Below are positions 3,718 to 15,079 of a stretch of DNA of 30,493 bases, piece after piece. This stretch comes from Flavobacteriaceae bacterium (GTDB lineage: Bacteria > Bacteroidota > Bacteroidia > Flavobacteriales > Flavobacteriaceae): assembly GCA_027065775.1 (NCBI GenBank), contig JAMONN010000062.1, forward strand, positions 1 to 30,493. The letters are read 5' to 3'. Position 1 is the stretch's first letter. Each line of letters begins with the position of its first letter. Both the position numbers and the translations under genes were made by a program. The notes under the pieces are model-generated. The model worked only from the letters and a program-made list of their open reading frames with translations, was not told the DNA's origin and did no database searches.

Positions 3718-3936
3718 ATGAAAATTAAAATAATTACACTTTTATTCATTCTATTATCCCAAACAATATCGTCACAATGCGCTATGTGTAAAGCAGTTGT
3801 AGAGAATGGCGATGCAGATATGGCAGAAGGAATTAATTCTGGTATTACCTTTTTAATGCTGTTTCCGTATCTGTTTTTAGCAATAGGAATAATTATCTAT
3901 TATCGAAATAAAAAAAGAGACGCAAAAAAATTGTAA
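3718..3936 (+). CDS. small secreted or membrane protein (signal peptide, CxxC, C-terminal transmembrane segment)
   Basis: 72 aa with a hydrophobic N-terminus, a CAMCK motif and a C-terminal hydrophobic stretch followed by a basic tail. Lies 4 nt after hflX. Confidence 0.4.
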   Translation: MKIKIITLLFILLSQTISSQCAMCKAVVENGDADMAEGINSGITFLMLFPYLFLAIGIIIYYRNKKRDAKKL

Positions 3937-4062
3937 CATCTAAACAGATTAAACGTCATACAATTGTACAAAAGTTAACTTTAAATGCTAAAAAGTTTGT
4001 TACCTAAAAAATTAATTAATGGCGAACACCATATGTCCGCTAAAAACAATAAATATAAACAC

Positions 4063-5394
4063 ATGAAAGCAAAAATCACACTATTATTACTACTAATAAG
4101 TGTTAGTTTATCTTACTCTCAAAAAAAATGGTCTTTAGAAGAATGTGTTAATTACGCATTAGAACATAACTTAACTATTAAAAGAACTTTACAAACTAAT
4201 CTATTAGTAGATGAAGATGTTAATATTGCAAAAACTAATTGGTTGCCTTCTGTTTCTGGTTCGGCATCTCAAAATTTAAATTTTGGTTCAAATATTAATC
4301 CATCAACAAATTCAAGAATAAATACACAAAGTATATCGAATGGCTTTGGTGTAAATGCATCTATGGTTTTATTTGATGGTTTTAGAATTAAAAACGGTTT
4401 ATTAAGTGCCGAAAAAAATAGAGATATAAGTAAATTAGACTTAGAAAAATTAAAAAATGATATTTCTTTAAATATTGTTAATTCTTATTTAAATGTTCTA
4501 TTTCAAAAAGAAAGTTTAAAAGTTGCTCAAGCAAATTTAGAAATCACCGAAAAATCATTAAAGAGAACACAAGAATTAATTGATGCAGGAACACAACCAA
4601 GAGGTAATTTATTAGAAATTGAAGCAACAAAAGTAAACGACGAAAATGCGATTGTAATTGCGCAAAATAATATCGATTTAGCATTGTTAGACTTATCTTT
4701 AATATTACAATTACCTAATAAAGAGTTTGATGTAGAAACTATTGAAATAGAATTAAACGAAGTAAGTTTAAAATTAAATAATACAGAAGACATCTATAAT
4801 GTTGCTTTAACAAAACAACCAAATATTAAAAGTTCTGAATTAAGTGTTGAAAATGCAGCAACTAATATTGAAATTGCAAAGGCAAACTTTTTACCAAGCG
4901 TTACATTAAATAGTGGTTTAGATACGAGATATAGTCATATTAGTGGTATTGATAATTTTTCTAATGAGTCTTTTATAGATCAACTAGATGAGAATTTTGG
5001 TCAATTTATTGGTCTAAATATTCGCATACCTATATATAATAAAGGCCAAACAAAAATAAATGTTAATAGAGCGCGAATAAATCAAGAAATAGCAAAAACT
5101 AATTTAGAAGACCAAAAACGTGGTCTTAGAGAAAATATCGAAAGAGCTTATATTAGTGCTAAAGCAACCTTAAAAGAATATGAAGCCGCTACAAAATCTT
5201 TAGAAGCACAAGAATTAGCATTTAATTTTGCACAAGAACGTTATGCTTTAGGTGCGACTAACTCTTTTGATTTTGAACAAGTAAAAAACAGATTGATAAG
5301 TGCTAAATCCGCAGTAATTAGAGCCAAATATAATTACGTATTTAGAACAAAATTATTAGAATTCTATTATGGAATACCTATTGTAATAGACTAA
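4063..5394 (+). CDS. TolC-family outer-membrane efflux protein
   Basis: The likely true start is the third in-frame Met (MKAKITLLLLLISVSLSYSQ signal peptide). The typical TolC N-terminal motif LSLEECVNYALEHNLTIK and the two-repeat architecture are present. Confidence 0.8.
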   Translation: MKAKITLLLLLISVSLSYSQKKWSLEECVNYALEHNLTIKRTLQTNLLVDEDVNIAKTNWLPSVSGSASQNLNFGSNINPSTNSRINTQSISNGFGVNASMVLFDGFRIKNGLLSAEKNRDISKLDLEKLKNDISLNIVNSYLNVLFQKESLKVAQANLEITEKSLKRTQELIDAGTQPRGNLLEIEATKVNDENAIVIAQNNIDLALLDLSLILQLPNKEFDVETIEIELNEVSLKLNNTEDIYNVALTKQPNIKSSELSVENAATNIEIAKANFLPSVTLNSGLDTRYSHISGIDNFSNESFIDQLDENFGQFIGLNIRIPIYNKGQTKINVNRARINQEIAKTNLEDQKRGLRENIERAYISAKATLKEYEAATKSLEAQELAFNFAQERYALGATNSFDFEQVKNRLISAKSAVIRAKYNYVFRTKLLEFYYGIPIVID

Positions 5395-5405
5395 AAATTA
5401 TTTCA

Positions 5406-5440
5406 GTAAAGGTTTCACTTAAAGTGAAACCTTTACTTTT
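5406..5440 (+). terminator. intrinsic terminator after the tolC-like gene (perfect 13-bp stem, 5-nt loop, T4)
   Basis: gtaaaggtttcac / ttaaa / gtgaaacctttac followed by tttt. Confidence 0.6.
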
Positions 5441-5449
5441 TAGAATTAA

Positions 5450-5480
5450 TTCACGGCGTCATTTAAAGTGACACCGTGAA
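5450..5480 (+). promoter_or_regulatory. second palindromic hairpin related to the first one (shared TTAAAGTGA core)
   Basis: ttcacggcgtca / tttaaa / gtgacaccgtgaa. This is a 12-bp stem with one mismatch and has no T-run, so it may be an operator rather than a terminator. Confidence 0.35.
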
Positions 5481-5511
5481 TATTTAGTACCTTTGTCGTT
5501 AACTTAATTTA

Positions 5512-6204
5512 ATGCAAAACCCAACTTACATATTAAATCTAGAAACCTCGACTAAAAATTGTTCGGTTAGCATTTCATTAAACGGAAAAGTGTTAGCGTT
5601 AAAAGAAATTTGTGAAACAAATTTCTCTCACGCAGAAAAATTGACTCCTTTTATTAAGGATGTTTTAACAGAAGCAAAACTAACTTTAAAAAACTTATCC
5701 GCAATTGCAATAGGTAAAGGTCCAGGTTCTTTTACAGGTTTGCGTATTGGTGTTTCATCAGCAAAAGGACTTTGTTTTGGGTTGGATATTCCGTTAATTT
5801 CAATTCCTACTATGGAAATTTTAGCCAATGCAACAACCGTTAATGGTTATATTATTCCGGTATTAGATGCCAGAAGGCAAGAAGTTTACACGGCAGTTTT
5901 TAATAAAAATAAAAAAATTGTAAAAGAAACTTTTAATCATGTTTTAGAAGAAAATTCATTTTCAGAATATTTAGATAAAGATGAAGTTATTTTTTTAGGC
6001 GATGGCGTTACCAAAACAAAAGAAATAATTAAACATAAAAACGCAATTTTTTTAGATGATTTTCATCCTTCGGCAAAAGAAATGTGCAAACTAGCATTTG
6101 AAAAATTTAAAAATAAAGATTTTGAAGATGTTGCTTATTTTGAACCTTTTTACCTAAAAGACTTTTATGTTACGCCATCTAAGAAACAAAAAGTATTGTT
6201 GTAA
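5512..6204 (+). CDS. tsaB: tRNA threonylcarbamoyladenosine biosynthesis protein TsaB (YeaZ)
   Basis: 230 aa with the Kae1/YgjD-like fold lacking metal ligands and the motif AIAIGKGPGSFTGLRIGVSSAKGL. Confidence 0.85.
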   Translation: MQNPTYILNLETSTKNCSVSISLNGKVLALKEICETNFSHAEKLTPFIKDVLTEAKLTLKNLSAIAIGKGPGSFTGLRIGVSSAKGLCFGLDIPLISIPTMEILANATTVNGYIIPVLDARRQEVYTAVFNKNKKIVKETFNHVLEENSFSEYLDKDEVIFLGDGVTKTKEIIKHKNAIFLDDFHPSAKEMCKLAFEKFKNKDFEDVAYFEPFYLKDFYVTPSKKQKVLL

Positions 6205-6559
6205 AAAGAATTAGTACAATACACAGCACAATTAAAATTACACCTCTATTTTCTAAAGAAACTTTATTTAGTAAAGATATTTTATCTGTAGTTTCTTGAA
6301 ATAAAACAGCAAAACCCTCAGGCTCATTATGCTTATAAATTGTAACATCATACAATTTTAAAATTTCTAAAGATTTTTCAACATCTTTTTCAAACACCTG
6401 TAATTTTACGCCACCAATGGCATTAGATAAAAAATTATCCGTTTGTACCGTAAATTCATCTTTTAAAAAAACATAAATATCTTCAGATTCTAATTTACTT
6501 TTAATAATAAAAGATTCTTGTGGTAATTCAAAAGTAATTAATGTTATTAGGTTTTCCAT
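6179..6559 (-). CDS. DUF2007 (putative signal-transducing) domain protein with a C-terminal transmembrane anchor
   Basis: LESEDIYVFLKDEFTVQTDNFLSNAIGGVKLQVFEKDVEKSLEIL fits the DUF2007 consensus. There is a C-terminal hydrophobic helix. It starts 4 nt downstream of the WYL gene stop, which suggests co-transcription. Its 3' end overlaps the tsaB 3' end by 26 nt. Confidence 0.6.
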   Translation of the reverse strand: MENLITLITFELPQESFIIKSKLESEDIYVFLKDEFTVQTDNFLSNAIGGVKLQVFEKDVEKSLEILKLYDVTIYKHNEPEGFAVLFQETTDKISLLNKVSLENRGVILIVLCIVLILFTTILFVS

Positions 6560-6562
6560 AAA

Positions 6563-8143
6563 TTACAAGGTATAAAAAAGTTCTAAGACATCAATATTTT
6601 GTTGCTTGTTTTTAGAATGAAATTTCTGTAAAGTAGCGTTATCAATCAATTGAATGCCGCCAATACGAATGTGACAATTAAAAATACTACTATTTTTAAC
6701 CAATAAACCGATTTCATTTTGTGTGAATTTCTTGTTATGAGAGGATAAAATAATATCTAACCTATTTGTTTCAGTAGCTTCTTTTAAATGTATTTTTATT
6801 GAAAATCCTTTACTGTCTGTTTTTTGAAACCAGTTTTTTGTAATTAATCCTTCATTTGATTTCTTGTAAAAAACACTTTTTTCTAATTTGATTTTAGGAT
6901 TTAAAACTTTTAAAATGTTCAGAAAGTTATTATTAAATAAAATACTTTCTATTTTAGGAATTTCATCAAATAAATCAGTAATAAACTCCATTTTAGGAGT
7001 TTGAATTTTAAAATAAGCATTTAATAACTGATTCATTTTCTTAATCTCTCGCAAACTAAAAACCTGATTCAAAATTGCAGAACCTTTATATTTTAGTTTA
7101 TTAGACATATCTATTAATCCTTTTTCTGAAATTTCGGTTTGATAAGATTCTGTCGCATACTTTAAGCGCTGTTTGATTTTTCTTTTTAAAAAAGGTGGCG
7201 AAATTACCCGAATGCCATCACCTAAACCTAAAATCTCTTTTTCTAATTCAAAATTATGTTGCACATTTAAAGAAATAGTAATGCCAAAATTGTCTTTTTT
7301 AATCAGTTTTTGCGAAGCGTGAAAAGGTTTAGTTTGGACATAAGGCGCATGTTTATTATAAACAAAAAGTATGATTTCTTCGGTTTTTAAATCCGGATTT
7401 ATAGAAACGCCAATCGCCTTACTAAAATAATGTTCTAAGTCATATTTACTGTTGTATTTAAACTCAATTTCACTTTCTTGTAAGTCAATAATTCGATCTA
7501 AAGCTAAATTTACCAAATGCTCTTGCCCGTCTCTAATACCAATAACAAACCAACGATTTCTAAATTCTTTTAGTAGATAAGCATGAAAGTCAAAAGTTGC
7601 CGCTTGTCTTGCTTTAAAGGATTTGTAGGTTATTTTAATTGCTTTTTTAGTAATTATTGTTTGGTACAATGTGTCTAAAAAATTTAATCCTTTTAAGTTT
7701 TCATTCTTTTCAAATTCAATTACTGGTTTGGTTCTTGTCTGATTAGAATATACATGATCTTCCAATTTTTGAATAACACCATTTAAAGCATCAAAATGCG
7801 AAAAACCTTTAAATTGTTTTAAAAACGCAACGGATTCCGACAGTTTTTCTAAATCTTGACTACTAATTGGTAGATTGGTAATGCTATATTTTTCTTCTTC
7901 GTAGGTATAATATTTACGATCAACTACAATAATTGGTGCGTTGTAACCTAATTTGTCACTTCGCATATTTTGAATATCTAATTGAACAGTCCGTTTACTT
8001 ACATTACAATCTTTTCCTTCGTATTCGTATAAAGCGTCTGAACATTCTTCTATTAAATCGTCTAAAGTCCATTTTCTAAACCTGTTTTGCAAACATTTAT
8101 CAATGGTTTTATATCTAATTAATGCGTTTTTATTTAGTGCCAT
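6563..8143 (-). CDS. WYL-domain transcriptional regulator (HTH-WYL-WCX) with an extra ~190-aa C-terminal domain of unknown function
   Basis: The N-terminus MALNKNALIRYKTIDKCLQNRFRKWTLDDLIEECSDALYEY is the hallmark HTH start of Bacteroidetes WYL regulators. A WYL-like core (HAYLLKEFRNRWFVIGIRDGQEHLVNL) and a WCX-like segment (GLGDGIRVISPPFLKRKIKQRL) follow. At 526 aa it is much longer than typical ~320-aa members. Confidence 0.7.
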   Translation of the reverse strand: MALNKNALIRYKTIDKCLQNRFRKWTLDDLIEECSDALYEYEGKDCNVSKRTVQLDIQNMRSDKLGYNAPIIVVDRKYYTYEEEKYSITNLPISSQDLEKLSESVAFLKQFKGFSHFDALNGVIQKLEDHVYSNQTRTKPVIEFEKNENLKGLNFLDTLYQTIITKKAIKITYKSFKARQAATFDFHAYLLKEFRNRWFVIGIRDGQEHLVNLALDRIIDLQESEIEFKYNSKYDLEHYFSKAIGVSINPDLKTEEIILFVYNKHAPYVQTKPFHASQKLIKKDNFGITISLNVQHNFELEKEILGLGDGIRVISPPFLKRKIKQRLKYATESYQTEISEKGLIDMSNKLKYKGSAILNQVFSLREIKKMNQLLNAYFKIQTPKMEFITDLFDEIPKIESILFNNNFLNILKVLNPKIKLEKSVFYKKSNEGLITKNWFQKTDSKGFSIKIHLKEATETNRLDIILSSHNKKFTQNEIGLLVKNSSIFNCHIRIGGIQLIDNATLQKFHSKNKQQNIDVLELFYTL

Positions 8144-8233
8144 TTAAAAATTTTGCAAGTATTTATTGTATATTTATTTTGATTATCAGCAGTTTAACTG
8201 AATAGCACTTCAAAAATAAGTAATATTTTTTTA

Positions 8234-8254
8234 TTGCGCAAAAAGATTGCGTAC
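8234..8254. promoter_or_regulatory. operator-like inverted repeat TTGCGCAA-aaaga-TTGCGTAc, copy 1
   Basis: Lies in the divergent WYL / RtcB-like intergenic region. A near-identical site (TTACGCAA-aaaga-TTGCGTAA) recurs at 11943-11963 with conserved flanks. Confidence 0.45.
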
Positions 8255-8293
8255 TAGTTTAGAAATATTTGCAATGTAAATAATTCAAAGTAG

Positions 8294-9796
<1,503 letters not shown>

Positions 9797-9802
9797 TTTT
9801 AT

Positions 9803-9832
9803 ACCTGTTAATTAATTTAGCAGGTTTTTTTA
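9803..9832. terminator. intrinsic terminator between the convergent RtcB-like and toxin genes
   Basis: acctg / ttaattaatttag / caggt followed by ttttttt. Confidence 0.55.
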
Positions 9833-10120
9833 TTCCATTATTTTATTTGGATGTTGACTTGTATTAAAAACACGCATAATATAAATGATATCATCAGTAA
9901 TAAAATAAACCATTTTGAAACTCCATTTCACAATAAATCGAATATTATCATTATTAAAACTAGGCTCTTTTGGGTAAGCAAACGGAAAAATTTTAAGAGA
10001 ATTTGGTAACTCTAATAATGTATTTAAAACTTTAATTGCATTTTGAGGACTTTGTTTAGCAATATAACTTACATTATTATTTAAATCTTGATGTGCTTTT
10101 TTATCCCAAATTATTTTCAT
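9830..10120 (-). CDS. type II toxin, RelE/ParE family
   Basis: 96 aa. IIWDKKAHQDL ... IRFIVKWSFKMVYFITDDIIYIMRVFNTSQHP matches the RelE/ParE fold pattern. It overlaps the upstream small gene by 20 nt, as is classic for toxin-antitoxin operons. Confidence 0.65.
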   Translation of the reverse strand: MKIIWDKKAHQDLNNNVSYIAKQSPQNAIKVLNTLLELPNSLKIFPFAYPKEPSFNNDNIRFIVKWSFKMVYFITDDIIYIMRVFNTSQHPNKIME

Positions 10121-10355
10121 TCAAAATATTATTTCTAACTTCTTTGGTAGTATATAAAGTTGCTGTTCCGTTTTTTATTGCCATAATACTTTTATTCATT
10201 TCTTTAATATATTGACTTTCGTAAATGGGTTTGCCTTTAGCATATCCAACAATATTCTCGCTTTCTATAAGTGTTTTCAACTTATTTAATAGCAAATCAT
10301 CAGAAATTCCTAATATTTTTTGTGCTAATGAAATTTTTAAAGTTTCAGTACTCAT
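10101..10355 (-). CDS. putative cognate antitoxin
   Basis: 84 aa. It sits upstream of and overlaps the toxin gene. It is not clearly Phd/ParD-like, so the family is unassigned. Confidence 0.45.
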   Translation of the reverse strand: MSTETLKISLAQKILGISDDLLLNKLKTLIESENIVGYAKGKPIYESQYIKEMNKSIMAIKNGTATLYTTKEVRNNILNENNLG

Positions 10356-10403
10356 AACTATTCTTCAATTTTTATAAATGCAATATACAATAATAATTTT
10401 ATT

Positions 10404-10613
10404 ACATTTGCAAAAAATTACACAGTAATTCAATAATGAAAACAATATTAACACAAAGCAGCTTACTACACGGAAATTATCCGTGTGTTCGTTTTTCGAA
10501 TAGTTTCGAAAAAGGCAGATGCTTTGTGCTTAAAAAACGACAGATTTAATAAAATTTTTCTGTAAATAATATAAAAACACAAAGCATTCAATTAAATTGG
10601 ATGCTTTTTTTTG
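10404..10613 (+). ncRNA. candidate small RNA (~190 nt) with its own -7 box and an intrinsic terminator
   Basis: A TAcaTTTG box lies at 10404-10411. There is no ORF. Long-range complementarity links cacaaagca (10452-10460) with tgctttgtg (10519-10527). Internal hairpins include acacggaaattatccgtgt. The terminator is agcat / tcaattaaattgg / atgct followed by T8 at ~10578-10613. Confidence 0.3.
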
Positions 10614-10919
10614 GTCTAAATAGTAATAAAATAGTAGAAATAACGATAAAAAATTCCGAATCAAGTTCGGAATGACAATAATAAACAATAAATTTAAAAA
10701 TATTCTAAAAATTAAAAATAACTAAAATAAAATCTTGAACATAAAACCAATTGAGAGACAGACAGTTGAAAAAATGTAAAAATTCGCTAAAATGCGAAGA
10801 GGAAATCTATTGCCTAAATTTAATTTAACTGTTTGATTATCAATAAAATAAATTAATTTTTTCTTGTTTAGTAATATAATTTGTCTTTATATTTGCACCG
10901 GAAATAATTTATAAAAAAA

Positions 10920-11027
10920 ATGAAACAATTTAATTTACATATAGAACTGCCGAGTTTATCATTACAACGATTTTATAGTTGTGAAGAATCGCAAATAAAA
11001 GATATTGGAGAATGTTTATTAGAATAA
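10920..11027 (+). CDS. 35-aa small ORF (MKQFNLHIELPSLSLQRFYSCEESQIKDIGECLLE) with its own promoter and terminator; alternatively a non-coding sRNA
   Basis: A -7 box TAtaTTTG lies at 10888-10895 and the ATG at 10920. The TAA stop is followed by the terminator gcatctc / ctaacc / gagatgc plus a T-run (11051-11079). Confidence 0.25.
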   Translation: MKQFNLHIELPSLSLQRFYSCEESQIKDIGECLLE

Positions 11028-11092
11028 CTATGTAAAATACATATTTATAAAAGCATCTCCTAACCGAGATGCTTTTTTTATGCAATTAATTT

Positions 11093-11179
11093 GGAAGAGC
11101 AAGCCAATTGGTGGTGGCCGCAGTTTTGAACATTGTTAGGAGATAATGACTCGTGTGGGTTCGATTCCCACTTCTTCCG
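11093..11179 (+). tRNA. tRNA-like gene with a long variable arm (class II-like) and a defective anticodon stem; possible pseudo-tRNA
   Basis: The acceptor pair GGAAGAG / TTCTTCC, the D-stem GCCA / TGGC and the T-arm GTGGG-TTCGATT-CCCAC are intact. No 5-bp stem with a 7-nt loop can be drawn around ...cgcagttttgaacattg.... Coordinates are approximate to within 1 nt. Confidence 0.35.
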
Positions 11180-11189
11180 CAAAAAAAAT

Positions 11190-11276
11190 GGAGAGTAGGC
11201 AAATATTGGTTTGTTGCGCTTGTTTGCTAAACAAGTCTATGTAAAAGTAGTGAAGGTTCGATTCCTTTATTCTCCG
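11190..11276 (+). tRNA. tRNA-Ser (anticodon GCT)
   Basis: Acceptor GGAGAGT / ATTCTCC, D-stem GCAA / TTGC, anticodon stem CTTGT / ACAAG with loop ttGCTaa, a 16-nt variable arm and T-arm GAAGG-TTCGATT-CCTTT. It is AT-rich. Confidence 0.8.
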
Positions 11277-11288
11277 CAATTAAATTAA

Positions 11289-11371
11289 GGAAATGTTGAG
11301 CAATTGGTTGGCTCACCTGACTGTAAATCAGGTCTGTAAAAAGCATGTAGGTTCAAATCCTACCATTTCCA
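11289..11371 (+). tRNA. tRNA-Tyr (anticodon GTA)
   Basis: Acceptor GGAAATG / CATTTCC, D-stem GAGC / GCTC, anticodon stem CCTGA / TCAGG with loop ctGTAaa, a long variable arm, T-arm GTAGG-TTCAAAT-CCTAC and discriminator A. Confidence 0.85.
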
Positions 11372-11435
11372 CAAAGCACTGAAATAATTCAACTGTCTCT
11401 TGAGTTGTTTGTTTTAAATAATAATCAGTGCTAAA

Positions 11436-11507
11436 TCTGAGAAGATAACGTTGGTAGTTTACTCGCCTTGGACGCGAGAGGTTGCAAGTTCGATTCTTGC
11501 TTCTCAG
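11436..11507 (+). tRNA. tRNA-Pro (anticodon TGG)
   Basis: C1:G72 acceptor CTGAGAA / TTCTCAG (typical for bacterial tRNA-Pro), anticodon stem CTCGC / GCGAG with loop ctTGGac, T-arm GCAAG-TTCGATT-CTTGC and discriminator A. Confidence 0.75.
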
Positions 11508-11512
11508 ACAAA

Positions 11513-11585
11513 TGTTCCGTTAGTATAATGGTTAGTACGCTTGACTTTCTATCAAGATATAAGAGTTCGATTCTCTTACGGAATA
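11513..11585 (+). tRNA. tRNA-Glu (anticodon TTC), unusually AT-rich (~34% GC), with G1·U72 and a pyrimidine at position 37
   Basis: Acceptor GTTCCGT / ACGGAAT, D-stem GTAT / GTAC, anticodon stem CTTGA / TCAAG with loop ctTTCta and T-arm AAGAG-TTCGATT-CTCTT. Confidence 0.65.
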
Positions 11586-11590
11586 CAAAT

Positions 11591-11663
11591 GCAGCAATGG
11601 CGGAATGGTATACGCGTTGGTTTTAGAAACCAAATTTTGAAAGTTCGAGTCTTTCTTGCTGTA
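11591..11663 (+). tRNA. non-canonical class-I tRNA with anticodon TAG (a Leu anticodon but no long variable arm), with G1·U72
   Basis: Acceptor GCAGCAA / TTGCTGT, D-stem GCG / CGC, anticodon stem TTGGT / ACCAA with loop ttTAGaa, a 5-nt variable loop, T-arm GAAAG-TTCGAGT-CTTTC and discriminator A. Confidence 0.55.
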
Positions 11664-11668
11664 CAAAT

Positions 11669-11748
11669 TGACTTGTGATGTAATGGTTAGATATAAGAAT
11701 TTGACTCTTATTATAGAGGTTCTTCCAAATTTCGGACTTTCAAGTCAA
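11669..11748 (+). tRNA. tRNA-Gln-like (anticodon TTG, U1:A72 as in bacterial tRNA-Gln) with an aberrant, enlarged T-arm region; possible pseudogene or structural variant
   Basis: Acceptor TGACTTG / CAAGTCA, anticodon stem TAAGA / TCTTA with loop atTTGac. There are 30 nt between the anticodon arm and the 3' acceptor strand instead of ~22, and no canonical TTCGA T-loop (ggttcttcc instead). Confidence 0.4.
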
Positions 11749-11755
11749 TAAATAT

Positions 11756-11830
11756 GGTGTTATTGTTGAAACTGGTTTATCATAGAAGGTTGTGAACTTT
11801 CCGTTACGAGTTCGAGTCTCGTATAACACC
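11756..11830 (+). tRNA. tRNA-His (anticodon GTG), with the encoded G-1
   Basis: G-1 is followed by acceptor GTGTTAT / ATAACAC and discriminator C73. Anticodon stem GAAGG / CTTTC with loop ttGTGaa and T-arm ACGAG-TTCGAGT-CTCGT. Confidence 0.8.
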
Positions 11831-11942
11831 CAAAATAGAAATATAGTTTAATTAGATAAAACCTTGGTTTACGACATCAAAAATGCGAGTTCTCCCGAAG
11901 TTTCGGGATTGCTATTTCTACAAAAAATAAAAATAATTTTTA

Positions 11943-11963
11943 TTACGCAAAAAGATTGCGTAA
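11943..11963. promoter_or_regulatory. operator-like perfect inverted repeat TTACGCAA-aaaga-TTGCGTAA, copy 2
   Basis: Perfect 8-bp arms with a 5-bp spacer. The flanks (aataatttttatta...) match copy 1 at 8225-8254. Confidence 0.45.
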
Positions 11964-12006
11964 CAGATTAAGTTATTTGTATCATAATTAAATACAACTA
12001 GTAATT

Positions 12007-12036
12007 CTCTGATGTTTAGTGGATGAAACATCAGAG
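12007..12036 (+). promoter_or_regulatory. conserved leader hairpin, copy 2 (perfect 11-bp stem)
   Basis: ctctgatgttt / agtggatg / aaacatcagag. It lies at the same 44-45 nt distance from the palindrome as copy 1. Confidence 0.45.
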
Positions 12037-12238
12037 ATTGTTTGATAATTAATAAGTTCTTTAAAATATAATTTCAATTTGGTTTGAAATGTAAAATTTT
12101 TCCGTTAAAACGGAAAACAAGGTAGAAAAAAGTAATTAGAAAACCTGATACGTGTTTCTGAATAGCACTATGGTATTGTACTTAATAAGTAACAATATGC
12201 CGTTTCGGTTATTTTTGTTTTACCACACCTTGTAGGTC

Positions 12239-12404
12239 GAAGGTTCGATTCCTTCTCTAGTTTATTCTAGATAGTTCAGCGGTTAGAACAACAAGTTGCT
12301 TGTTACAGGTTCGAGTCCTGTTTCCAATACTTAACAATATTTGTTGGAATAACTCAATTGGTAGAGTAGCACTACACTTTCAATGTAGGTTCGAAGAAGA
12401 TCAC
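12239..12404 (+). pseudogene. cluster of degenerate tRNA remnants (T-arms and D-arms without functional acceptor or anticodon stems)
   Basis: (a) 12239-12255, gaaggttcgattccttc, has 16 bp identical to the tRNA-Ser T-arm at 11258-11273. (b) ~12266-12329 has a perfect D-arm (gttc-agcggtta-gaac) and T-arm (acagg-ttcgagt-cctgt), but its anticodon arm is 15 nt and the acceptor strands do not pair. (c) ~12346-12404 has a D-arm (actc-aattggta-gagt) and a truncated T-loop (ggttcgaag). Confidence 0.4.
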
Positions 12405-12736
12405 TTCTAAAAAGATCGATGAATTTAAGGTTCATTTAATGAAGTTGATTACTTCTAAAAATAATCAAAACCAAAAGAAATCTAAAACAAGTCGGTTATT
12501 ACGTTTACGCAATAACACTCTTAAAAAAACCTTGAAGTTTAAGGATTCCGTACTATTAATTAGTATTACTTTTTAAAAGAATTGTTTTGTACAACTACAA
12601 ACTTGTAGTTTTATAATTCACTTTTGTTTAATAACTAATATTAGGCAATGTTACTCAATTAAACTTCCGTATTTAAAAGAGGGTTTGTTTTAGATGTCTT
12701 TTACAAAAACGAATAATAAAATTAAATATAAATAAA

Positions 12737-13834
12737 ATGAAAAAAGTAAGAATTAACGAAGGTAAAATAGGTTTGGTTTTTAAAAACGGAAACTACAAAA
12801 GAGTATTAACTAGTGGTAACTATTGGTTATTGTTCTCTGAAAAAGTATACATATACAATTTAAGTACTGAGTTTTTTGCACCAGTAAAATTAGAATTATT
12901 GTTGCAAAATATTGATTTAGAGAATAAATTAAATATTATAGAGGTATTGGACAACGAAATTGTTTTAAAATATGAAAACAAGATTTTTAAAGGTGTTTTA
13001 AGAGCAGGTAAATATGCATTTTGGAAAAGTAAAATCAATAATTACACTTTTACAAAAGTAGATTTAAGTAAGGTTGAAATTACGGAAACTATTAGTAAAT
13101 CTGTTTTAAAAAAAGCAGAGTTATTGCAATATTTAAGAGTTTACGTTGTAGAATCTTACGAAAAAGCAATTTTGTTTTTAAATGGTAAAATACAAGAAGT
13201 TTTAAAAAGTGGTACATATTATTTTTGGAAAAACGATGTGAATATTAAAATTGAAAAAGTGGATTTAAGACAAATTCAGTTAGAAATTTCAGGTCAAGAA
13301 ATGTTAACCAAAGATAAAACCGCTTTAAGAATCAACTTTTATGCTCAATATAAAGTAGTTGATATCAATAAAGCTTTATTAGATAATAAAAATTTCGAGA
13401 AGCAATTGTATATTTTAATTCAATTAGTTTTAAGAGAATATATTAGTGCATTAACTTTAGATGAATTGTTAGAAAACAAAATAACTATTGCAAATAAAGT
13501 TTCTGATGATGTTGGCAAGAAAGCAATGACTTTAGGTGTTCAGATTTTAGATTCTGGTATTAGAGACGTTATTTTGCCTGGTGAGATTAAAGATATTATG
13601 AATCAAGTATTAATTGCTCAAAAGAAAGCACAAGCCAATGTGATTTCTAGAAGAGAAGAAACCGCAGCAACAAGAAGTTTGCTAAACACTGCAAAATTAA
13701 TGGAAGATAACGCGATGTTATTCAAATTAAAAGAAATGGAATATGTCGAAAAAATTGCAGATAAAATTGGTGAAATTACAGTTGCTGGTAGCGGAAATGT
13801 AGTGGAGCAATTAAAGACTATTTTTAGTAAGTAA
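12737..13834 (+). CDS. SPFH/band-7 (prohibitin/stomatin-like) protein with an N-terminal extension containing a repeated motif
   Basis: The C-terminal half carries the SPFH signature (GVQILDSGIRDVILPGEIKDIMNQVLIAQKKAQANVISRREETAATRSLLNTAKLMEDNA). The N-terminal ~135 aa contain three ~35-aa repeats of G.Y.FWK...KVDL. Confidence 0.75.
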   Translation: MKKVRINEGKIGLVFKNGNYKRVLTSGNYWLLFSEKVYIYNLSTEFFAPVKLELLLQNIDLENKLNIIEVLDNEIVLKYENKIFKGVLRAGKYAFWKSKINNYTFTKVDLSKVEITETISKSVLKKAELLQYLRVYVVESYEKAILFLNGKIQEVLKSGTYYFWKNDVNIKIEKVDLRQIQLEISGQEMLTKDKTALRINFYAQYKVVDINKALLDNKNFEKQLYILIQLVLREYISALTLDELLENKITIANKVSDDVGKKAMTLGVQILDSGIRDVILPGEIKDIMNQVLIAQKKAQANVISRREETAATRSLLNTAKLMEDNAMLFKLKEMEYVEKIADKIGEITVAGSGNVVEQLKTIFSK

Positions 13835-13884
13835 ATTTATTAAACTTCAAAAATAAAGAAGATTCTTTATTAGAAAGGTAATTA

Positions 13885-13915
13885 ATTCATACGATGATTT
13901 TAAATCATCGTATGA
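13885..13915. terminator. 31-nt perfect palindrome (15-bp stem), a probable bidirectional terminator between the convergent SPFH and mobA-like genes
   Basis: ttcatacgatgattt / a / aaatcatcgtatgaa. Confidence 0.5.
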
Positions 13916-13918
13916 ATA

Positions 13919-15055
13919 TTATAAAAATAATTTTGATGAAAATTTAGAATTTAATTTTATCAAATCTTCTTTAGTATTCACGTTTTGAATAATTTCATCA
14001 CTAATTTCTACAATTTCTACGTCATTATTTATCAATACTTTTCTAGGGCAAGAATAACCTTGTGCTAAATAATTTAGCAAAATAGGATATGCTTTTGGTT
14101 CCCAAATAGTAATTAATGGTTCTGGAAAATTTTTACTTTTACCTTTAAATGTGGTTGCAATTTTAGACGGATTTCTTTTAGATAATAATAAATTTATAAT
14201 CTCTTTACTTATAAATGGTAAATCGGTAGCTACAACTAGCCATGCTTTATTTGGGTTATGCATAAAAGCAGAACAAATGCCACTAAATGGTCCGAGATCT
14301 AAAAATTTATCCGTAATAATTTGTGTTTCATTTGCTAATTGATTTTCATCTCTAACCGAATAAAAAATATTATTTTCTGTAATAGAATCACCTAACACAT
14401 CTAACAAATATTCTCGTTGAGGTTTACCGTGGTAATCTAAATTACTTTTATCGGTTCCCATTCTTTTACTTTTTCCGCCAATAAGAATCAAACCATTTAC
14501 CGAAGCAATTTTTTCTTGAATTAAATTTTCTATATGATTAGAAATAGTATCTATTTCATCTATTTCATAACATTTTAAGTTTTTAATTGCGGGTTGCTTT
14601 TCCACTAAAAAATCGAAAAATTTAGCATCTTTAGTCGCTTTAATAATAAATTGAATATTATCTAACTGCTCTAAACGTTTTAAAACAGATGCTTCTTTTT
14701 CATTATCTAAAATAAGAATTTGTTGTGTTGCTTGATAATGATTTCCGTTTACAAAAACTAAATCATGCCCACTGAATTCAATTTTTAAATTATATGGATT
14801 TTCATCTTGAAGAGCCGTTTTTTCTACAAATCCGTTTTTATTAAAAGTAAGAACATCGATATTTGGCACTTGTTTTTCAAAATCATGTGACGCATCAAAA
14901 TAAGCGATTTTGTGCTTTTTTTGCAATTTTTCGCTAATATTCCGTACTAAATTAGCAATATTTGAACATTTTGATCCTAAAATAGCAATTTCGTTTGGAG
15001 CAAAATTACCGTTATTTCTTCTTTTTATGTTTTTGTGTTTTCCCATTTTTCCCAT
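13919..15055 (-). CDS. mobA: MobB-like (degenerate P-loop) / MobA-like nucleotidyltransferase fusion (molybdenum cofactor guanylyltransferase-like)
   Basis: The C-terminal half carries the MobA motifs LILIGGKSKRMGTDKSNLDYHGKPQ and WLVVATDLPFI. The N-terminal half resembles MobB (LVFVNGNHYQ...ILILDN), but the Walker A is degenerate (AILGSKCSNIANL). The track start at 15070 is a TTG; the first ATG is at 15053-15055 (MGKMGKHK...). Confidence 0.55.
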   Translation of the reverse strand: MGKMGKHKNIKRRNNGNFAPNEIAILGSKCSNIANLVRNISEKLQKKHKIAYFDASHDFEKQVPNIDVLTFNKNGFVEKTALQDENPYNLKIEFSGHDLVFVNGNHYQATQQILILDNEKEASVLKRLEQLDNIQFIIKATKDAKFFDFLVEKQPAIKNLKCYEIDEIDTISNHIENLIQEKIASVNGLILIGGKSKRMGTDKSNLDYHGKPQREYLLDVLGDSITENNIFYSVRDENQLANETQIITDKFLDLGPFSGICSAFMHNPNKAWLVVATDLPFISKEIINLLLSKRNPSKIATTFKGKSKNFPEPLITIWEPKAYPILLNYLAQGYSCPRKVLINNDVEIVEISDEIIQNVNTKEDLIKLNSKFSSKLFL

Positions 15056-15062
15056 CTTTTGT

Positions 15063-15079
15063 CTTCCCAAAGGGAAGAA
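15063..15079. promoter_or_regulatory. palindrome TCTTCCC-aaa-GGGAAGA just upstream of the mobA-like start
   Basis: Perfect 7-bp arms. A related copy lies at 15311-15327 with an extended flank match (cccatctttTGTCTTCCC versus GGGAAGACggaagatggg). Confidence 0.4.

Follow-up and report, generated by a model that had tools for sequence, protein, structure and literature searches.

Among the systems closest to the locus analysed here, DriD of Caulobacter crescentus and PafBC of Actinobacteria are stress-response activators built from a winged helix-turn-helix (wHTH), a WYL and a WCX domain, an architecture which the regulator described below has in common with them. To our knowledge, the sensing of RNA damage and the induction of RtcB are largely obscure outside Enterobacteria, RtcR being the only such regulator to have been studied. 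RtcR, the regulator of rtcBA, is activated by damaged tRNA fragments (PMC7790460). In the current work, a stretch of 30,493 nucleotides (nt) from a Flavobacteriaceae bacterium (assembly GCA_027065775.1, contig JAMONN010000062.1, positions 1 to 30,493; G+C content low, at 23-34%), referred to in its entirety as the window, was analysed with respect to a gene (6563-8143, minus strand) encoding a regulator of 526 amino acids (aa). The best explanation, to which a probability of about 70% is assigned, is that this protein represents a WYL-WCX one-component regulator of RtcB/SPFH repair genes which carries a catalytically dead PhyH-type domain.

The open reading frame (ORF), Pfam searches and a full-length structural model assign to the regulator, from its N- to its C-terminus, a wHTH, linker helices, a WYL domain, a WCX domain and a degenerate PhyH-like domain. 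The WYL domain was matched by PF13280 at residues 155-222 (E 1.4e-8; 35 bits versus a gathering score of 21.8) and by the PADLOC WYL model (E 1.6e-22), and is followed by a match to PF25583 (WCX) at residues 255-328 (E 1.8e-7; 31.9 bits versus a gathering score of 23.9). No Pfam HTH match was obtained in the regulator, the wHTH being known from the model and from its structural alignment with DriD. In the full-length model (predicted local distance difference test, pLDDT, 79.9, with linker helices of low confidence) the N-terminal wHTH (residues about 1-85; 7889-8143, minus strand) is formed, within residues 5-81, by helices at 5-19, 27-42 and 50-61 and then a beta-hairpin at 71-81, while the WYL domain spans residues 153-223 (7475-7687, minus strand), the WCX domain residues 254-335 (7139-7384, minus strand) and the PhyH-like fold residues 340-526. 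The best Protein Data Bank (PDB) matches retrieved with this model by Foldseek were DriD bound to single-stranded DNA (ssDNA) and operator DNA (8tpk/8tp8; E 4e-14), in an alignment of approximately 344 columns which includes the wHTH region, and the other top matches were complexes of DriD and RNA polymerase in the course of activation, PafBC with RNA polymerase (E 1e-11), and then PhyH enzymes; the sequence profile of the regulator reaches DriD weakly (E about 4e-3). Sequence and structure both place the 526-aa protein in the HTH-WYL-WCX class of regulators, and its relatives all belong to Bacteroidota, mostly to Flavobacteriaceae. A sequence-only reading of the window had described an oversized WYL regulator with some 190 extra C-terminal residues, against a norm of 300-330 aa; the ORF and the Pfam WYL and WCX matches agree with this description, as do the DriD and PafBC chains of 317-330 residues in the PDB with the norm.

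When the C-terminal 195 residues of the regulator were searched against Pfam (E<=1) and NCBIfam, zero matches were obtained, and the family of this domain was found only via homologues and structure. The statement of the sequence-only reading that this region has no obvious family consequently holds for the single sequence, but not once homologues are considered, as these place it in PhyH (PF05721). A whole-protein search with the regulator returned more than 7,600 matches, the closest 11 of which (59-100% identity) are 524-541 aa in length, while nearly all of the others are of about 573 aa and contain PF05721 after the WCX domain; the intact homologue P0054, unlike the window domain, matches PF05721 at 3.8e-8. 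An AlphaFold model of the C-terminal domain (195 residues, 26-sequence alignment) reached a pLDDT of 89.2 and a predicted template-modelling score (pTM) of 0.86, so that the region, for which structure prediction had been proposed as a check, is neither disordered nor of low complexity. Foldseek retrieved GriE as the best match for this model (E 7e-12, template-modelling (TM) score 0.77, probability 1.00), with further matches to EctD, proline hydroxylase H11 and FtmOx1 (TM 0.71-0.77, normalised to the query). Residues of about 340-526 (6566-7126, minus strand) are thus modelled as a folded PhyH homologue with a double-stranded beta-helix, i.e. a degenerate version of the PhyH-type 2-oxoglutarate (2OG)/Fe(II)-dioxygenase fold, for which homologues, alignment, model and Foldseek provide the evidence.

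In PhyH enzymes the Arg that holds the C5 carboxylate of 2OG is expected approximately 10 residues past the distal His. The complete set of H, D, H and R is retained in 163 of 202 family members. The alignment shows that in the clade to which the window protein belongs (the window clade) the WHQD motif, which provides the HxD of the iron-binding triad, reads WFQK/E/N (WFQK in the window, with F439 and K441), and that a 31-residue loop following this position is deleted. The distal His of the LLHAS motif is replaced by Gln (Q506) in the window protein and by Arg in other clade members, the 2OG-binding Arg of the RRRV motif is lost from the clade (QNID in the window protein), and the last 15 or so residues of the intact relatives are missing. 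Having lost the HxD...H...R residues along with the 31-aa loop and the tail at its C-terminus, the domain is assigned as a pseudo-enzyme, predicted to be catalytically dead and to have lost canonical Fe(II)/2OG binding, and 2OG-dependent oxygenase activity is predicted to be absent from the window protein. In other words, the domain is PhyH by its fold, but, lacking a profile match, the metal triad and the 2OG Arg, no functional member of that family. The suggestion of a second sensor or effector domain was accordingly right in that a real folded domain is present, but this domain proves to be of a PhyH dioxygenase type that is, by prediction, dead. An artefact of the boundary of a genomic island (see below) was also considered as an origin of the short C-terminus and rejected, given that the C-termini of the clade are mutually homologous and that the related locus L089 keeps a remnant of the 3' end of the regulator gene.

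The genes found in the vicinity of the regulator were counted following clustering of the ORFs from 82 loci, with the SPFH gene of the window itself included. Upstream of the regulator gene and on the opposite strand, RtcB is encoded in 50 of the 82 loci and a 366-aa SPFH/Band-7 protein, always in this orientation, in 35, followed by a TPR protein (25/82), a PrfH-like RF-1 protein (9/82), a TROVE/Ro60-vWA protein (7/82) and a metallophosphatase (6/82); 3' of the regulator, the genes vary between loci and occupy the other strand. In the window, the RtcB RNA ligase gene (8369-9796, plus strand; Pfam RtcB, E 3.8e-35) is divergent from the regulator gene, and the SPFH/Band-7 gene is located at 12737-13834 (plus strand; Pfam Band_7, E 1.4e-31). 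The connection of the regulator with an RNA-repair module, which the sequence-only reading had drawn, is upheld by the frequency of divergent RtcB and SPFH genes together with a common operator.

This operator is an inverted repeat, TRCGCA-N7-TGCGYA, of which the window contains two exact sites, where 0.09 would be expected by chance with one mismatch allowed. Operator 1 (TGCGCA-AAAAGAT-TGCGTA, 8235-8253) is located between the regulator gene and RtcB, and operator 2 (TACGCA-AAAAGAT-TGCGTA, 11944-11962) upstream of the SPFH leader, where its counterparts in L082, L084, L085 and L086 can be aligned with it. The inverted repeat was found in 77 of 88 loci, often in two or three copies; 118 sites were recorded over 82 loci, 54 of which have a site no more than 400 nt from the regulator ATG (median 42 nt), and the remaining sites precede RtcB, SPFH, TPR, TROVE and PrfH genes. 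The 7-nt spacer, RTSTTTT, adopts a single fixed orientation, and across 125 sites a conserved TTTG (on the operon strand; CAAA on the other) is found 17 nt from the operator on the side of the repair operon. The -7 consensus of Bacteroidetes promoters is TAnnTTTG, and we take the conserved TTTG to be such a -7 box, a reading which would place the operator centre near -33; in the window, the candidate -7 box of the RtcB-ward promoter is AATATTTG (8264-8271, plus strand; identified by eye from the consensus). There is strong comparative evidence for the prediction that the regulator binds TRCGCA-N7-TGCGYA and controls the adjacent genes.

Two further observations concern the surroundings of the operators. 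In L081, the RtcB-proximal operator is separated from the regulator by an inserted gene for a 576-aa amidohydrolase (4256-5986), which has the same direction as the regulator, and as a result of this intervening gene the regulator of L081 has no operator directly upstream. Moreover, both window operators are followed by a hairpin with a conserved (A/U)NUGGAYG loop: one, with the loop AUUGGACGA, in the 5' leader of RtcB (8299-8329, plus strand; minimum free energy -10.6 kcal/mol, z -1.2), and one in the SPFH leader (12006-12037, plus strand; -16 kcal/mol, z -3.3). A hairpin with the same loop was present in two of the close relatives that were checked, namely after the RtcB-proximal operator of L081 (at about 4061) and after the single exact operator of L084, which has two copies of the hairpin approximately 1.9 kb apart (at about 3911 and 5797). 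These leader hairpins could act as a 5' stabiliser, an attenuator, an RNA ligand or a decoy.

In the mechanism which we propose, a dimer of the regulator would bind the operator, centred near -33 of the repair-operon promoters, by means of its wHTH, and would control both RtcB and the SPFH unit as well as its own synthesis. The WYL domain would, by analogy, sense a signal of nucleic-acid damage, for instance fragments of cleaved tRNA or rRNA, or ends bearing a 2',3'-cyclic phosphate, upon which the regulator would switch on RtcB, the module of SPFH protein and tRNA-like RNA, and itself. According to PMC9503650, transcription factors of the WYL and CARF types may have cyclic-phosphate RNAs as their signal, and RNA repair is under the control of some of them. 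The dead dioxygenase domain would be retained as a structural, oligomerisation or ligand-binding module and not as an enzyme. An activator is favoured because DriD and PafBC, which are the closest relatives of known structure, activate transcription from the -35 position.

A number of points weigh against this interpretation. The position of the operator would suit a repressor equally well, and the promoter boxes are candidates assigned by eye from the consensus. DriD and PafBC sense ssDNA, not RNA. In the window RtcB directly adjoins the regulator, while SPFH comes first in the closest relatives, a difference in order from which a rearrangement of the window locus is concluded. The C-terminal domain evolves faster than the rest of the protein, which could mean that it is decaying rather than functional: within the window clade the ratio of non-synonymous (dN) to synonymous (dS) substitution, omega, amounts to about 0.25-0.53 for this domain and to 0.05-0.12 for the N-terminal part, values that are rough because dS exceeds 1 and is saturated. 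Finally, the regulator is likely to be co-transcribed with a DUF2007-like gene located only 3 nt downstream, and incidental co-regulation of the two may result.

The first alternative to be weighed, and a possible one although it is considered unlikely, is that the regulator acts as a repressor in the manner of CapW/BrxR, blocking its own promoter and the repair promoters at -33 until a damage signal occupies the WYL domain. The overlap of the operator with the predicted -33 region speaks for this, the median distance of 42 nt from the operator to the regulator ATG is a geometry typical of autorepression, and WYL one-component transcription factors of conflict systems are negative regulators (PMC9503650). 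However, the promoter geometry does not discriminate, because DriD and PafBC, as activators, also occupy the would-be -35 element; these activators are the best structural matches of the regulator, and no CapW or BrxR structure was present among the top 50 Foldseek matches.

A more far-reaching proposal, put forward tentatively and held somewhat less probable than the repressor, concerns the family as a whole: HTH-WYL-WCX-PhyH proteins may constitute an undescribed class of two-input RNA-repair regulators, in which an intact dioxygenase would add a signal dependent on O2, Fe(II) and 2OG, and in which this domain would repeatedly have been turned into a non-catalytic module for ligand binding or allostery. 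Fitch parsimony on a tree built by neighbour joining from the N-terminal 330 residues placed the intact state at the root and required at least 13 state changes, roughly 6-8 of which (a rough count) hit several catalytic residues in separate lineages; a loss similar to that in the window clade recurs in other lineages of the family. A profile of the C-terminal domain retrieved 2,200 representative proteins at E<=1e-3, among them many stand-alone homologues of 225-250 aa, but also HTH-PhyH proteins (P0255, of 387 aa, at L094 587-1750, and P0256, P0276, P0319 and P0349), in which the N-terminal HTH region of the family (50% identity over 143 aa) is fused straight to the PhyH-like domain, with no WYL-WCX. 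Such proteins would fit a sensory role of the PhyH domain on its own. If the two-input proposal is true, an intact domain might oxidise or demodify a WYL-bound RNA fragment or nucleotide, or hydroxylate the regulator itself, and the oxidative or iron status of the cell would then influence how RtcB and SPFH are induced.

It is rather doubtful, by comparison, that the C-terminal domain of the window clade is a functionless relic in the process of being lost, in which case only HTH-WYL-WCX would matter. The disappearance of the four catalytic residues, the loop and the tail, as well as of any Pfam signal, would be in keeping with such a relic. Considering that dS could mostly not be estimated in the intact clade, dN(C)/dN(N) ratios were compared, which amount to 3.2-4.5 in the window clade and to a median of 1.5 in intact relatives; aa identity within the window clade is 36-61% for the C-terminal domain as opposed to 69-89% for the N-terminal part. 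Against the relic stand the observations that a truncation of the domain was seen in none of the 12 clade members, the ORF length being held at 524-541 aa despite divergence of the domain down to 36% identity, that its omega is below 1, and that it is modelled as a compact, high-confidence fold. Furthermore, other lineages without the catalytic residues likewise keep this domain of about 190 aa, and the HTH-PhyH proteins without WYL suggest a regulatory role of the PhyH-like domain itself. Constraint on the dead domain would appear to be relaxed yet still purifying, as is compatible with the retained non-catalytic module of the proposed mechanism.

That the regulator serves phage defence rather than RNA repair, similar to the WYL regulators of CBASS, BREX and CRISPR loci, is improbable. 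PADLOC returned only generic Cas-associated WYL models for the regulator, and a ParE toxin-antitoxin pair is present between RtcB and the tRNA genes described below, the ParE-family toxin (9830-10120, minus strand; Pfam E 2.3e-8) overlapping a putative antitoxin of 84 aa (10101-10355, minus strand). However, PADLOC gave no match for RtcB, SPFH, DUF2007 or ParE, the ParE pair was not found in relatives (in L081, the closest, not at the same position), and the genes conserved next to the regulator belong to RNA repair (RtcB, SPFH, PrfH-like, TROVE/Ro60 and metallophosphatase). The two readings overlap in part, because a counter-defence or an anti-toxin response can itself take the form of RNA repair.

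Between RtcB and the SPFH gene the window contains additional RNA elements. Seven tRNA genes (11093-11831, plus strand; Ser-tga, Ser-gct, Tyr-gta, Pro-tgg, Glu-ttc, Leu-tag and His-gtg) precede the SPFH leader, and in relatives (L019, L024, L027, L040, L041 and L081) tRNA-Tyr(gta) and tRNA-Pro(tgg), or larger arrays, are located immediately 5' of RtcB, on the strand of the operon. It may be that such genes accompany the repair genes as an accessory supply of 'spare' tRNAs, which could take the place of those cleaved by anticodon nucleases. The SPFH gene itself is preceded by a conserved non-coding leader of approximately 790 nt (11963-12736, plus strand), in which tRNA-like and YrlA-like elements as well as the above-mentioned hairpin are found. 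Its mean column identity is 77% with four relatives whose regulators are only 62-67% identical (counterparts at L082 5158-5935, L084 5106-5940, L085 5170-5935 and L086 2400-3165, minus strand); it contains the T-arm-like blocks GGTTCGAATCC and CAGGTTCGATTCCTG and the D-arm-like block TCAGTTGGTAGAGT, and a full-length YrlA (Y RNA-like) match at 12285-12396 which is sub-threshold (35.4 bits versus a gathering score of 69; E 2e-5). We presume that this leader is probably the tRNA-like RNA of the SPFH/Band-7-RtcB RNA-repair modules which Burroughs and Aravind reportedly described in 2016.

The extent of the island is revealed by L089, the backbone of which is 88-93% identical to the window and from which, according to blastn, the RNA-repair island (6632-13936) is absent: L089 1698-3909 corresponds to window 16130-13937, and L089 3943-6464 to window 6631-4062. 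HflX, OEP, TsaB and DUF2007 are consequently joined in L089 directly to a MobA-like gene (window 13919-15070), and the seven-tRNA array is missing along with the remainder of the island. About 70 nt of the 3' end of the regulator gene are left at the L089 junction (3909-3943), and because this remnant survives the event is interpreted as a deletion in L089, not as a fusion in the window. The segment of approximately 7.3 kb that comprises the regulator, RtcB, ParE, the tRNA genes and SPFH is therefore a presence/absence polymorphism between closely related genomes.

The DUF2007-like gene (6179-6559, minus strand), which specifies a tail-anchored protein of 126 aa, lies at the edge of this island, its ORF beginning 3 nt past the regulator stop codon (TAA-TTT-ATG). 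The sequence-only reading had noted a DUF2007 gene with a membrane anchor just downstream of the regulator; the close spacing and the C-terminal anchor, a hydrophobic stretch of 21 residues (GVILIVLCIVLILFTTILFVS), are confirmed, but the match to DUF2007 (PF09413) is below the gathering score (20.2 versus 25.7 bits; E 6.7e-4), and NCBIfam DUF2007_rel scores 16.1 versus a threshold of 55. Since most homologues carry PF09413 (some being named DUF2007 by NCBI), the protein is assigned by transitivity as a divergent member. Its gene and tsaB (5512-6204, plus strand) are convergent, with 3' ends that overlap by 26 nt, an arrangement kept in L081 and L089. A scan of 5400-8500 detected 0 terminators and hence no terminator-like site between the regulator and the DUF2007 gene, and a sigma-70 promoter scan of the same region gave 8 promoter-like sites versus 17 expected, using a tool that does not cover Bacteroidota promoters.

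Beyond the window this adjacency is not conserved in any of the relatives examined. A tblastn search detected a DUF2007 homologue in 0 of 80 species-representative loci around regulator relatives, and none of the five closest relatives has DUF2007 next to the regulator, downstream of which a different gene is found each time (a LigD prim-pol, a SulP transporter or small ORFs on the opposite strand). In L081, the 76%-identical relative, DUF2007 is convergent with tsaB, and a distance of approximately 1.9 kb, which includes a gene for a 493-aa protein, separates it from the regulator; L089 has an intact DUF2007 gene (92% aa identity to the window protein). Among four contexts of DUF2007 orthologues that were examined, the regulator was adjacent in none (0/4), other orthologues having unrelated neighbours. 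The proposal that a WYL sensor and a tail-anchored DUF2007 partner form a signalling pair through which signals from the envelope or from phages would reach the RNA-repair genes, a proposal for which the co-directional genes, the terminator-free spacing, the hydrophobic helix and the Pfam label 'putative signal transducing protein' might speak, is hardly credible, given that the pairing recurs in none of the relatives examined and that L089 has kept DUF2007 after deletion of the regulator and the island. On comparative grounds the DUF2007 gene is a chromosomal backbone gene that abuts the island by chance and no functional partner of the regulator, and to annotate it as a component of the system would be misleading.

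Compared with DriD and PafBC, the window regulator is alike in having a predicted inverted-repeat operator near the promoter core and in its predicted logic, by which a nucleic-acid damage product acting on WYL would switch on a repair regulon. It differs by its PhyH-type domain of about 190 aa, by a host that belongs to Bacteroidota, with a promoter type unlike that of the DriD and PafBC hosts, and by its predicted regulon, which serves RNA repair (RtcB, SPFH) and not the response to DNA damage. RtcR of Enterobacteria is considered a functional analogue because it, too, is a dedicated and divergently encoded regulator of an RtcB operon and is activated by damaged tRNA; its operon also holds tRNA-like Y RNAs. 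It belongs, however, to an unrelated, sigma-54-dependent family (CARF, AAA+ and HTH) which contains no WYL, WCX or dioxygenase domain. The locus thus offers a testable alternative to RtcR, in the form of a regulator family that is widespread in Bacteroidota and of an exact operator sequence, and it defines a putative regulon of RtcB, the SPFH protein with its tRNA-like RNA, Ro60 and the PrfH-like protein. Like known SPFH/Band-7-RtcB modules, the island combines RtcB with an SPFH protein whose gene follows a conserved leader with tRNA-like/YrlA-like elements.

GriE, EctD, proline hydroxylase H11 and FtmOx1 have their fold in common with the window domain at only 10-16% sequence identity; enzymes of the GriE/EctD type act on small molecules, whereas the window domain is fused to a transcription factor and has neither the metal triad nor the 2OG Arg. 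The HTH-WYL-WCX-PhyH architecture is already present in public annotation, in which the homologues of about 573 aa are named 'WYL domain-containing protein' or 'phytanoyl-CoA dioxygenase family protein' by NCBI; no paper on it was found in the literature, although Burroughs and Aravind 2016 might describe it. These Bacteroidota proteins are full-length homologues of the window regulator (49-54% identity) with the same operator and the same RNA-repair neighbourhood, but the family retains HxD...H...R (163/202), the 31-aa loop and the C-terminal tail, all of which the window clade has lost. Intact and, as predicted, dead dioxygenase domains therefore occur on one scaffold, a natural series from which the contribution of an enzyme domain to a transcription factor could be learned.

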